Part shown: positions 1 to 64,000 of the stretch, piece by piece
Layout: each line of letters opens with the position of its first letter
Numbering within the stretch: position 1 is the stretch's first letter
From: Trueperaceae bacterium
Lineage (GTDB): Bacteria > Deinococcota > Deinococci > Deinococcales > Trueperaceae
Length of the DNA: 64,000 nucleotides
Direction: 5' to 3'
Assembly (NCBI GenBank): GCA_965215565.1
Contig: CBDCDZ010000004.1
Coordinates: forward strand, 4,329,474 to 4,393,473
Program-made: the position numbers

Positions 1-3000
1 GCACCCTCCAAGATTGGGAGCAGGGACGGCGAGAGCCTTCGGGGGCTGCGAAGACGTTGCTCAAAGTGGCGGAGCGTTGTCCTGAGATTTTGCGGGAGGT
101 GGCAGCTTAGTTATTGGGAGTGGGAGAAGATTGACCTCTCAGTAAAGATAGCGAAGTGGGAAGAGGTGACGGAGATGCTGAATGCAAAAGCATGATGTAG
201 AGATAGAGAAGCGCTACCTAATGCTGAAAGGAGTACTCGAGCAACTCGCTGAGCGCTTTTATGACAATCCAGGTATTCAAGCTTTACGCAAAGAGAACCG
301 TTATGACGTTGTTGAGCAAGTTAAAGACTACGCTAATCATAGCGAATTTAGCATTTCATTCGAGACACTTGTAGATCAGCTTTACGAATTTGACATAGCG
401 ATTTCAAAAGAAGATGTCAAGCACATCCGGTACGTGGCTGACCTCTTAAAAATTCCTTACAAACGCTGGGGTTTTGTGCGTCGCTTGGTTAGAAATTGAC
501 CCGGAGATTGTCGGATAGAAATCACCTTTTTCTTCGTCCTAAACGGCTCAAACTGTAGCTCAGACACCTTGCTTTTCGGCTCAAAATTGAGTACAATAAA
601 TTCAAATTAGTTAGACGCTCCAAGCGCAACTTCACCTCTTTAGACAACCTGAATTTCTCGCACAGAGGAGTCACTTTTGCCTGTAGCCGAGCCCATCCGC
701 CCGACCTCAGCCACCTCACGCCCTGCCCCTGCCAAGAAGCCCAAGCTCTGGACCCCTAAGCGTGTCCTCTTCACCCCGGACGCCTTAGAGCAGCCCTTTG
801 GTCAGCAGATGTACGAGCGCATGACCTCTTTAGGTTTAGATATCACCGAACTCAAGAGCAACCGCGTCACGGGCTTGCGCGGCAAAGACGAGCGTGAGAC
901 CTACCGCCTCGCCAAGCAGACCCTAGCGGTGGTCAACGCGCCCCCCAGCATGATGAAGCTCCAGCCCATCCCACCCTCGGCGGACTGGCAGTTTCACCTC
1001 GCTAAGGGCTGCCCCGCGCACTGCCAGTATTGCTATTTGGCGGGCTCCCTGTCGGGTCCACCCGTGACCCGCGTCTACGCTAATTTGCCTGAGATTTTGG
1101 GTCATCTAGCGCAGTACGAGAACGGTCCGACCTCTTTCGAGGTGTCGTGCTACACCGACCCGCTCGGTCTGGAGCACCTCACGGGCAGCTTGTCCGAGTG
1201 CATCAAGTATTTCGGCACGCGCACGGACGGCTCACTGCGCTACGTGAGCAAGTTCGACGCGGTGGACGGGTTGCTCGACTTGCCGCATAACGGTCAGACT
1301 CGCGCCCGCGCATCGGTCAACGCTGAGCTTATCGGCAAGAGGCTCGAGGGTGGCACCGCCCCCGTCTCCGCCCGCTTAGGAGCCATCCGCAAGCTCGCCC
1401 AGGCGGGCTATCCCGTCGGCTTAGTCATCGCGCCCATCATGCCTATCGAGGGCTGGCGTGAGCACTACACCGCCTTGTTCGGCGAGATCGAGGCGACCCT
1501 AGACTTCCCCGTGGACCTCACCTTCGAGCTGATCAGCCACCGCTTCACGCCCGGCTCGAAAGAGGTCTTGGAGGGCTGGTATCCGAACAGCAGCCTCGAC
1601 CTGAGCGAGGAGAACCGCAGCGTCAAGCGCAACAAGTTCGGCGGCACGAAGTTCGTCTACACGAAGGACACGATGAAGACCTTGCGCGAGTTTTTCGAGG
1701 CGGAGATAGCCGTGCGCTTTCCCGAGGCGCAACTTCTGTACTGGACGTAAGCAGATGTACGTGAGGTGTTGGCTGCTGGCGGCTGACACCTCTTCTCTTT
1801 TGGTTTAGGAGACCTCTCTGAATCTTCTCAACGTCAAAAAGATTTATCTCGAGCCCGACGTCCCCGCCTATCCACGCGGCATGGAAATCTTAGCCCGCTT
1901 CCCCGACGCGGAGCAAATTGAAATCCCATCTCATTGGAACATCCCCAGCTTGCACGGCAACGAGGGTTCGGTGGACGACTGGGTACGTATCAAGCGCGAC
2001 GTGCTCGTTTTGGGCGTGCGTAAGTCGCTACCTGTGCGTGAAAATGGGCGGAGCGGCGACTTTATCGCGCCGGGCACCGCGAACGGCTGCGCGATGGCCT
2101 GCGCCTACTGCTACGTGCCGCGCCGCAAGGGGTACGCCAACCCCATCAGCACCTTTGTGAATATCGACGCGGTTTGCAAAGCGATTCGCCGTCACGCCGC
2201 TAAACAGCCTCCCAAGCCACTTCTTCAAACCGACCCTAAATGTTGGGTCTACGATATCGGCGAGAACAGCGACTGTTCGGTGGACGCGCTCATCTCAGAC
2301 AACGTCCGCGACCTCGTAACGCTCTTTTGGGAACTTCCGAATGTAAAGGCGTCCTTTGCGACCAAGTACGTCAATTGCGACCTCTTGAACTACGATCCGC
2401 AGGGCAAGACCCGCATCCGCTTCTCGCTCATGCCGCAGAAGATCGCCAAGACCGTAGACGTGCGCACCTCACCTATGAGCGAGCGTATCGCAGCGGTGAA
2501 CGACTTCGTGGCGGCGGGCTATGAAGTACATCTCAACTTCAGCCCGATTATCTTGTACGAAGGCTGGTTAGAGGACTACGCGGCACTTTTAGAAGAGGTG
2601 GACGACGTACTCTCCGACGAAGCTAAGGCGCAGCTCAAGTGCGAGGTCATCTTCCTGACGCACAATGAGGGGCTGCATGAGGTCAATTTAGGGTGGCACC
2701 CGAAAGCCGAAGACCTACTCTGGACGCCTGAGAACCAAGAGGCCAAGGTGTCGAAGATGGGTGGGAGGAATGTGCGGTACAAGCGCGGGTTTAAGGGGGC
2801 GCGGGTGCGGGAGTTTAGGAGGTTGCTAGAGGAGAGGTTGCCGTATTGTGAGGTGCGGTATGCGTTTTGAGCGATGGTTGCGGGTATTTCTCTTCCGACC
2901 TTCGCGCTGAATATTCCACAACTACAACGAGATGTGACCTTTTAGGAGAATTCCGCTCTACGATGTCGTACATTTCTTAACTGGGTGATTCTATTATGCA

Positions 3001-63000: not shown

Positions 63001-64000
63001 ACCACTGTCAATGAGAGGGGGGTTCATTAAGGTGTTGATAAAATTCAGCTTAGGCGAATTTGAGTGACGAAGTAGACGGGTGGGTGGAGCTTTACGCACC
63101 CACAGTTACTAACTTTTGCCTTCTATTCCATCAATCCTTTTCCGAATTCAGATACGGCATTACTCGTACTTTTCTAAAGGTTGCCATTCCATCAAATTTT
63201 CATGAGCTTGCGATGAAAAAGTGCTAAAAAAGCAACCTTTTGACCCTTTTTTGGCAACCTTTTGGCAACCTTCGTTCTTTAGAGTGAGAACAGGCCGGGT
63301 AGAAAATCCTGGCATAGGAGAAAAGAGAAAAAGATGAAATAGAAACCCCAACTGCTTTTACCATCAGCCTCTTGAGCTTCAACGTCTTCAACCTTGGCTA
63401 CAAAGTTCATATACCAAGTTTTTTGAAGATCGATGAGAAGTTCAAGCAAGATAGCTAGGCTCTGTTGAAATTCTTCAGTACTAGTTGTTAGAAAAGGGCA
63501 TGAGCGACGTAAGAATCAAGGCTAAGCAGTGGACTAAAATCAAGGCATTCTTAGATGAGAACCCGCAGGTGTATGTAGGACAGGAGAAGCAGTGCCGTAA
63601 ATTTGTTGAAGGGGTACTGTGGATGTTGCGTTCGGGTGCACAGTGGCGACTTCTCCCCCCGAGGTATGGCAATTGGAACAGTGTGTATAAGCGTTTTGAC
63701 AGATGGAGTGAACGAGGCATCTGGAAGGAAATGTTTGAGCACTTTGCTGATGATCCCGATATGGAAAGTGTGATGATGGACGGCAGTGTCGTGCGAGCCC
63801 ATGCGTGTTCGGCAGGTGCGCCCCATAAAAAAGGGGTCAAGAAGAACAACACCTCGGCTATAGTCGCGGCGGGTTCAGTAGCAAGATACACGTCTTAGTC
63901 GATGCTTTAGGCAATCCGTTGCGGCTCTTACTCAGTGCCGGACAAGCGCACGAAGCGCCTTATGCCAAAGCCTTACTCGCAGACTATGAGGTTGAATTTG

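Follow-up and report, generated by a model that had tools for sequence, protein, structure and literature searches.

Introduction

HIP1 (GCGATCGC), the highly iterated palindrome, has hitherto been regarded as cyanobacterial, and we know of no function that has been agreed for it in three decades. Such palindromes occur at densities of ~1,000–2,000 per Mb (Elhai 2015, PMC4390886), and for HIP1 an over-representation of 15–300-fold and a periodicity of 18–94 kb are reported (Xu et al. 2018, PMC5861425). In Synechococcus PCC 7002 methylated HIP1 is reported to lift transformation over 100-fold, and HIP1 abundance to correlate with DNA-transfer families. Uptake by Campylobacter jejuni is described as limited to DNA methylated at RAATTY (PMC10046745). 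The word CTCGAG is itself the target of active m6A methylases in Marinithermus hydrothermalis (94.6%), Meiothermus chliarophilus (94.1%) and M. ruber (99.5%) (Blow et al. 2016, PMC4752239), the cognate-nuclease column for the Marinithermus and Meiothermus enzymes being empty in the S3 table of that study. Passages of a 2026 hot-spring epigenome preprint give CTCGAG as a methylated motif with no mention of over-representation, whilst its supplements may list Deinococcota methylomes. In the literature searched, whose coverage leaves out most subscription journals, we found no description of a CTCGAG excess in this phylum.

Here we describe CTCGAG in a Trueperaceae genome, starting from a window of 64,000 nucleotides (64 kb) of its chromosome, and in its relatives within the Deinococcales.

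Results

CTCGAG is a real and maintained word in the Trueperaceae genome. The count of 6,790 copies and the even spread given for the chromosome (contig C4) in the initial annotation were recovered on recounting, at 1.545/kb (1,545 per Mb) and with Poisson spacing (variance/mean 0.96–1.06 at scales of 1 to 100 kb), and the three small contigs, previously put at 1.8–2.5/kb, carried 2.49, 1.83 and 2.06/kb. As also claimed (at 2.6-fold), the word ranks first among palindromic hexamers, with observed/expected ratios of 4.95 (order 0), 2.58 (order 2) and 1.34 (order 4), and the purge of GGCGCC and GAGCTC is equally clear (39 copies each, 1.3–1.5% of order-2 expectation). When all hexamers are ranked at order 2, ACCTCT (3.5-fold) and AAGAGG (3.3-fold) both stand above CTCGAG. 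The window holds 101 copies against 32.5 ± 6.0 in 100 shuffles, dispersed over positions 236–62647, with 50 in frame as Leu-Glu, 6 in frame +1, 18 in frame +2 and 27 outside gene calls. Its 24 out-of-frame coding copies (positions 3255–62647; examples at 3255, 7011, 16754, 36426, 54003, 54021 and 62642) belong to the class carrying a 4–7-fold excess.

Gene calls were made anew, and across the 3,422 genes of at least 300 nt the copies fell into the three frames as 3,332/397/1,386, compared to 2,832/56/292 after synonymous shuffling, whilst in-frame GAGCTC numbered 23 against 1,983, in agreement with the frame excess claimed earlier. The intergenic excess likewise held up in DNA that was not repeat-masked (1,467 copies, 4.7-fold over order 2). 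In-frame sites, which make up about half of all copies, are thus only 1.1–1.2-fold enriched, the out-of-frame and intergenic sites 4–7-fold, and the frame and intergenic counts sum to an excess of ~3,000 copies. A repeat family was rejected as the carrier, the commonest 18-mer context having only 8 copies. Density in unshared DNA is 1.47/kb compared to 1.55/kb, and the word is dense on plasmids that look foreign by their avoided-word content, and in foreign islands too.

We then compared the coding sites with a synonymous-codon sampler fitted on 130 genes (48,661 codons) and constrained by codon use, junction dinucleotides, AAGAGGT and every other palindromic 4- and 6-mer. The sampler predicts ~130/3/15 copies by frame where 143/14/65 were observed, that is ~18 out of frame against 79 (p ~1e-25 for the sum). 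Escape from the avoidance of neighbouring palindromes, which the initial annotation had raised as a partial source of the excess, therefore falls short as its cause.

When CTCGAG was counted genome-wide in 201 Deinococcales genomes, the trait proved to be order-wide but patchy, with the Trueperaceae genome (1.55/kb) a moderate case. Density is 4.3–6.5/kb in all seven f5 genomes, about four times that of the Trueperaceae genome, 1.4–3.5/kb in the f4 genera g41, g48 and g49 (28 genomes), 0.3–2.6/kb in f1 and ~0.6–1.6/kb in g38, where the reversed control is of like size; in f2 the word is nearly absent (0.009–0.27/kb, 60 genomes), giving a range of more than 100-fold. The genome-focused reading of the initial annotation needs widening to this extent, the trait belonging to the order. 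Frame tests in relatives used samples of at most 40 kb, one 1-kb sample giving no gene call. An f5 example contained 74 in-frame and 49 out-of-frame copies against 7.5 and 2.9 expected. Within f1 most low-GC genomes have a strong excess, the high-GC genomes mostly a 1–2-fold in-frame excess alone, and the excess declines as GC rises (rho −0.59, kin not being independent). In the pooled f5 samples CTCGAG reaches 22.8-fold over order 0 and its flanks are nearly neutral, and the unit is therefore the hexamer. Counts of the 8-mer GCTCGAGC across genomes, on which the initial annotation had relied, were reproduced, and this longer word is a poor measure of relatives, as the bases on either side of the hexamer vary from lineage to lineage.

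Conservation of sites in the two congeners, also noted previously, was found again: in aligned DNA 161/252 copies are kept in G001 and 114/209 in G002, compared to 31–46% for all hexamers, and f5 genomes keep 30–71% compared to 9–27% (15 pairs, 68–77% identity). Silent loss and gain were assessed in pairs of genomes, with no polarisation and only where the flanks matched, using 434 kb aligned with G001 at 84.6% identity. Silent loss from CTCGAG was 103 against 374 expected, a ratio of 0.28 that is the lowest among 40 abundant hexamers, 36 unrelated control words lying at 0.48–1.58. At the Leu third position, the commonest, loss was 0.64 and gain 1.0, whilst outside it losses numbered 24 against 250 expected (0.10) and gains 24 where 12.4 were expected, a shift in both directions such as selection or drive would produce. 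The comparison with G002 gave a loss of 0.26 and a gain of 0.83, and overall values were 0.26–0.32 for loss and 0.83–1.22 for gain. One-off precursors of CTCGAG are depleted, those of transition and transversion type alike, and divergence around the sites shows no drop beyond ~12 bp. Three-way polarisation over a 22.6-kb overlap yielded small numbers, with 4+4 losses and 3+6 gains.

We found no m5C methylase in the Trueperaceae genome, which encodes several adenine or N4 methylases. The initial annotation had stated that no cognate methyltransferase was found; a candidate orphan m6A methyltransferase of the gamma class (569 aa) is nevertheless encoded outside the window, at C4:2,902,349–2,904,058 on the minus strand, with a putative specificity for CTCGAG; its family tracks the excess. 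Relatives occur in 21/36 other f1 genomes (G035 counted as one row), in 1/6 of f4 and in 0/18 of f2, f3 and f5 together. In many f1 genera the gene is placed between neighbours that we take to be dnaG-like and V-ATPase-like genes, and no nuclease accompanies it. The copy in the Trueperaceae genome shares 46–49% identity with that of its congener and adjoins an inserted cassette, and its specificity may therefore differ from the congener's. A second gamma-class family is present in 7 genomes at at least 40% identity, the Trueperaceae genome not among them, and its plasmid member adjoins a PF04555 XhoI nuclease. The two families are largely complementary across genomes, and in G002 the first-family gene is interrupted by an element bearing a second-family, XhoI-type methylase.

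The link between these families and the excess was assessed in 30 of the 37 f1 genomes, leaving out the two congeners, four short samples and G035. Out-of-frame CTCGAG numbered 102 against 25.9 expected in the 19 genomes with either family and 21 against 15.1 in the 11 with neither (with/without p 0.0015); at GC ≥ 60% the values were 41/17.0 and 13/12.4 respectively, and the association is confounded by GC and kinship. Six plasmids with the candidate family and a partner gene carried 78 copies against 81.6 expected and hence no avoidance, in an insensitive test whose positive control plasmid kept 4/10 expected sites; the partner nuclease matched XhoI weakly (hhalign probability 5.5%). Six f5 genomes (89–94% complete, the Pfam families partly covered per genome) gave no common methylase among PF07669, PF01555, PF00145, PF02086 and PF02384. 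As common causes we rejected a D12-class orphan at C4:2,935,462, found in only 5/61 genomes, the M.TaqI-like enzyme of G042, found in 4/61 and none in f1, and the XhoI-type enzyme, of which the Trueperaceae genome has no close copy; the phage collection searched held no XhoI-type methylase. Methylation may thus be a passenger or protector of CTCGAG and not its cause.

A second word, which is non-palindromic and equally abundant, had been omitted from the HIP-like reading. AAGAGGT occurs 6,297 times on C4 (4.1-fold in genes, 8.4-fold between genes), and the window holds 67 sites between positions 161 and 59824 (35 on the plus and 32 on the minus strand) where chance gives 7.1 ± 2.3. It is confined to genus g1, with 5,851–6,319 copies in three g1 genomes compared to 63–1,241 in 58 others. 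Its orientation is strand-neutral (3,141 leading, 3,156 lagging; 49.9% leading), the GGGNAGGG control being 57% leading, and without replication polarity a Chi or KOPS identity was rejected. The word is scarce on plasmids (0.17–0.25/kb), and in G001 its density is 0.56/kb in DNA unshared with the Trueperaceae genome compared to 1.31/kb. Congener comparison gave a loss of 0.14–0.25 and a gain of 2.8–3.6, and inverted pairs numbered 0–9 per spacing against 2.3 expected, with no peak. By its distribution AAGAGGT looks like an uptake-sequence-like tag of self-DNA; it is a better candidate for an uptake sequence than CTCGAG, and a candidate for like drive in g1.

Among competence genes, the window encodes dprA (35494–36606, minus strand; TIGR00732 above cut-off), a transformation gene, and a PilT/PilU pilus ATPase (4567–5679, minus strand; TIGR01420 above cut-off), both given as context only. 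Pilin-like genes were also listed in the survey. ComEC was found in 59/61 genomes, the exceptions being G004 and G032, both of f1 and both with no out-of-frame CTCGAG excess; this coincidence concerns two genomes, and many ComEC-bearing genomes also have no excess. All six f2 genomes searched have ComEC, in a family with CTCGAG densities of 0.009–0.27/kb, and the comEC frame of the Trueperaceae genome is cut to 529 aa.

Discussion

We tentatively favour the reading, to which we give somewhat less than an even chance, that CTCGAG is a HIP1-like word by which self-DNA is signalled in transformation or recombination. The word would be a self signal at the level of DNA, maintained site by site in most Deinococcales, and would act most likely in natural transformation, either at uptake or at the subsequent recombination step. 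Fragments with CTCGAG, methylated where an orphan m6A enzyme exists, would be favoured, presumably through a putative reader protein, and favoured sites would therefore resist loss and slowly build up where coding permits, as proposed for HIP1 and as shown for RAATTY in C. jejuni. Against a role in transformation, CTCGAG is as dense on plasmids (1.8–2.5/kb) and in unshared DNA, unlike an uptake sequence. A wider proposal, that an undescribed order-wide CTCGAG transformation signal with the asymmetric AAGAGGT layered on it in g1 represents an independent origin of sequence-specific uptake with a two-tier code, we consider rather unlikely.

Under Elhai's model, a site-directed repair or mutation ratchet, a protein recognising methylated or bound CTCGAG would restore it after replication errors, leaving the sites as mutational cold spots that in themselves serve no function. 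Suppressed loss (0.26–0.32) with near-normal gain (0.83–1.22) is what such a ratchet would give, and the Poisson spread along the chromosome, the high density on plasmids and foreign islands and the methylase association in f1 are consistent with it. However, every position and mutation type is affected, no low-divergence halo extends past the site, and away from the Leu position gains exceed expectation, albeit in small numbers. The absence of an m5C methylase here, together with the finding of Vsr in only 2/61 genomes and in none of f1 or f5, speaks against the ratchet and led us to reject a Dcm/Vsr very-short-patch product. We therefore hold the ratchet to be an explanation of low probability.

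Less probable again is that CTCGAG binds a protein that organises the chromosome or protects DNA, selection then acting on the density of sites and not on their position. The even density across replicons and the very high density in f5 would suit such a protein, as would a weak 31.6-kb peak in a simple periodogram (p 0.017), which lies inside the 18–94 kb range of HIP1; however, its p value is not corrected for the testing of five words, GCTCGAGC shows no such peak, no protein emerged as a candidate, density varies more than 100-fold and f2 does without CTCGAG.

Restriction ecology, where CTCGAG is the sole palindrome guarded by a resident methylase, the remaining palindromes and TCGA words being purged, and orphan methylases follow as protection, is consistent with several features. 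In genes 18 palindromic hexamers fall below 0.15 of expectation and the coding TCGA total is not raised (929 observed, ~970 modelled), between 43 and 95% of TCGA falls inside CTCGAG in three g38 samples with M.TaqI relatives, and several enzyme types are tied to CTCGAG within the order. Safety yields no absolute excess, however, whilst CTCGAG is ~5-fold enriched between genes here and 22.8-fold in f5, and the model with all other palindromes avoided leaves ~18 out-of-frame sites against 79. As the sole cause it is improbable and largely refuted, although it could explain why methylases are retained.

A further reading is that CTCGAG, as in Nocardia, is a regulatory site of orphan methylases and clusters at the origin. 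In its favour are the shared word, the orphan methylases and the candidate gene, which in many genera of f1 adjoins a dnaG-like gene. The DnaA-box cluster, however, has 4 sites in the surrounding 2.7 kb, a number equal to the genome average, and the profile is flat from origin to terminus, which refutes clustering here and makes this account very improbable. Least credible of all is a by-product of Leu-Glu codon usage, for although in-frame CTC GAG accounts for 3,332 of the 6,790 copies (1.1–1.2-fold) and those of high-GC relatives are nearly all in frame, the frame tests refute it for the excess copies (5–7-fold out of frame, 4.7-fold intergenic), GAG makes up 93% of the Glu codons that follow CTC compared to 39–75% of those after 14 other codons, and the excess persists in low-GC relatives with 5–8% CTC.

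CTCGAG offers a word parallel to HIP1 in a second phylum, with a more than 100-fold range in one order and with CTCGAG methylases already mapped in cultured members, a system in which models of uptake, recombination, repair ratchet and chromosome structure are directly testable. If AAGAGGT were an uptake sequence, sequence-specific uptake would have evolved again beyond the Neisseriaceae and Pasteurellaceae.

Compared to known systems, the orphan CTCGAG methylases of Nocardia, Marinithermus and Meiothermus share the word and have no cognate nuclease listed (PMC4752239), those of Marinithermus and Meiothermus coming from the same order as the Trueperaceae genome, whereas Nocardia is described there as having origin clusters and not a genome-wide excess. 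RAATTY and CtsM of C. jejuni offer a six-base palindrome, an m6A methylase and a naturally competent lineage; their role in uptake is shown, whilst for CTCGAG it is proposed by analogy. The DUS and USS of Neisseriaceae and Pasteurellaceae resemble AAGAGGT, which is non-palindromic, equal on the two strands and confined to its clade, occurs at ~1.4 per kb, is rare on plasmids and in accessory DNA and is marked by low loss and high gain; AAGAGGT differs in having seven bases, graded ends, no terminator inverted pairs and no flanking consensus. CTCGAG is unlike them in being a palindrome and in not being scarce on plasmids or in unshared DNA. With HIP1 and the alternate cyanobacterial HIPs CTCGAG shares its place as top palindrome, its presence in all frames, intergenic DNA and plasmids, a density within the HIP range, conservation between genomes, a putative link to orphan methylases and patchy loss within the clade, and to this extent the HIP-like reading of the initial annotation stands. 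It differs in phylum and word (a hexamer of 67% GC), in methylation, with m6A candidates in place of m5C and no common methylase in f5, its strongest lineage, and in fold-enrichment, which at 2.6–5-fold here lies far below the 15–300-fold of HIP1, an 8-mer that is not strictly comparable; pooled f5 samples reach 22.8-fold. Overall, CTCGAG behaves like HIP1 and AAGAGGT like an uptake sequence.

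Results and discussion

Across whole-genome counts, the strongest purge of GAGCTC was found in the genomes most dense in CTCGAG, with 4–15 copies in six of the seven genomes of f5, the family richest in CTCGAG, versus 62 in this genome. Short repeated elements of ~30 and ~60 bp are also present in many copies in f5 genomes (L200:6246-6382 in G040).

The second iterated word, AAGAGGT, is abundant solely in genus g1 and occurs 6,297 times on the whole chromosome (C4), with sites in the window lying between 161 and 59824. Its excess was 4.1-fold in genes, relative to shuffling, and 8.4-fold between genes, and 2,215 of 2,448 [EKQ]-Glu-Val tripeptides are encoded with it. 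At C4:3,708,887-3,715,658, the comEC frame of this genome closes after 529 aa, and four transposon-like genes come next; the open frames of the two congeners measure 737 and 789 aa.

The window also encodes a Type I-E CRISPR-Cas system (12241-21000), with cas3, cse1 and cas1 identified by NCBIfam and a short array at ~20,600-21,000 in which the first spacer is not as long as the others; a second array elsewhere in the window has a slightly different repeat. A spore photoproduct lyase-like gene lies at 809-1750 (TIGR04070, below cut-off). Outside the window, the frame of a Type IIG-like restriction-methylase (C4:3,784,707-3,788,666) contains an IS200/REP-type tyrosine transposase domain at residues of about 690-820.

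At the locus of the candidate CTCGAG methylase in this genome (C4:2,898,188-2,904,058), the protein has the same N-terminus as in the congener, with an overall identity of just 46-49%, and a cassette of HATPase-kinase, 391-aa and 178-aa genes, missing from the corresponding place in congener G001, is inserted beside it. In congener G002 (C4:631,411-641,527; L064, L065) the gene is interrupted by a ~8.4 kb element. Along with integrase-like genes and one transposase-like gene, the element carries an XhoI-type methylase without nuclease, so that one CTCGAG methylase may have replaced another in place.

Of the 80 loci with a member of the candidate methylase family (L085-L163), 65 have a neighbour protein in common, which ranged from 216 to 300 aa among seven that were inspected; it has a PD-(D/E)xK-like motif and no Pfam match, and Atlas gave a weak lead to XhoI. 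At two further loci (L223 in G038 and L273 in G050) a beta-class methylase is convergent with a paired XhoI-family nuclease, and this pair is an additional CTCGAG-linked enzyme type within the order.
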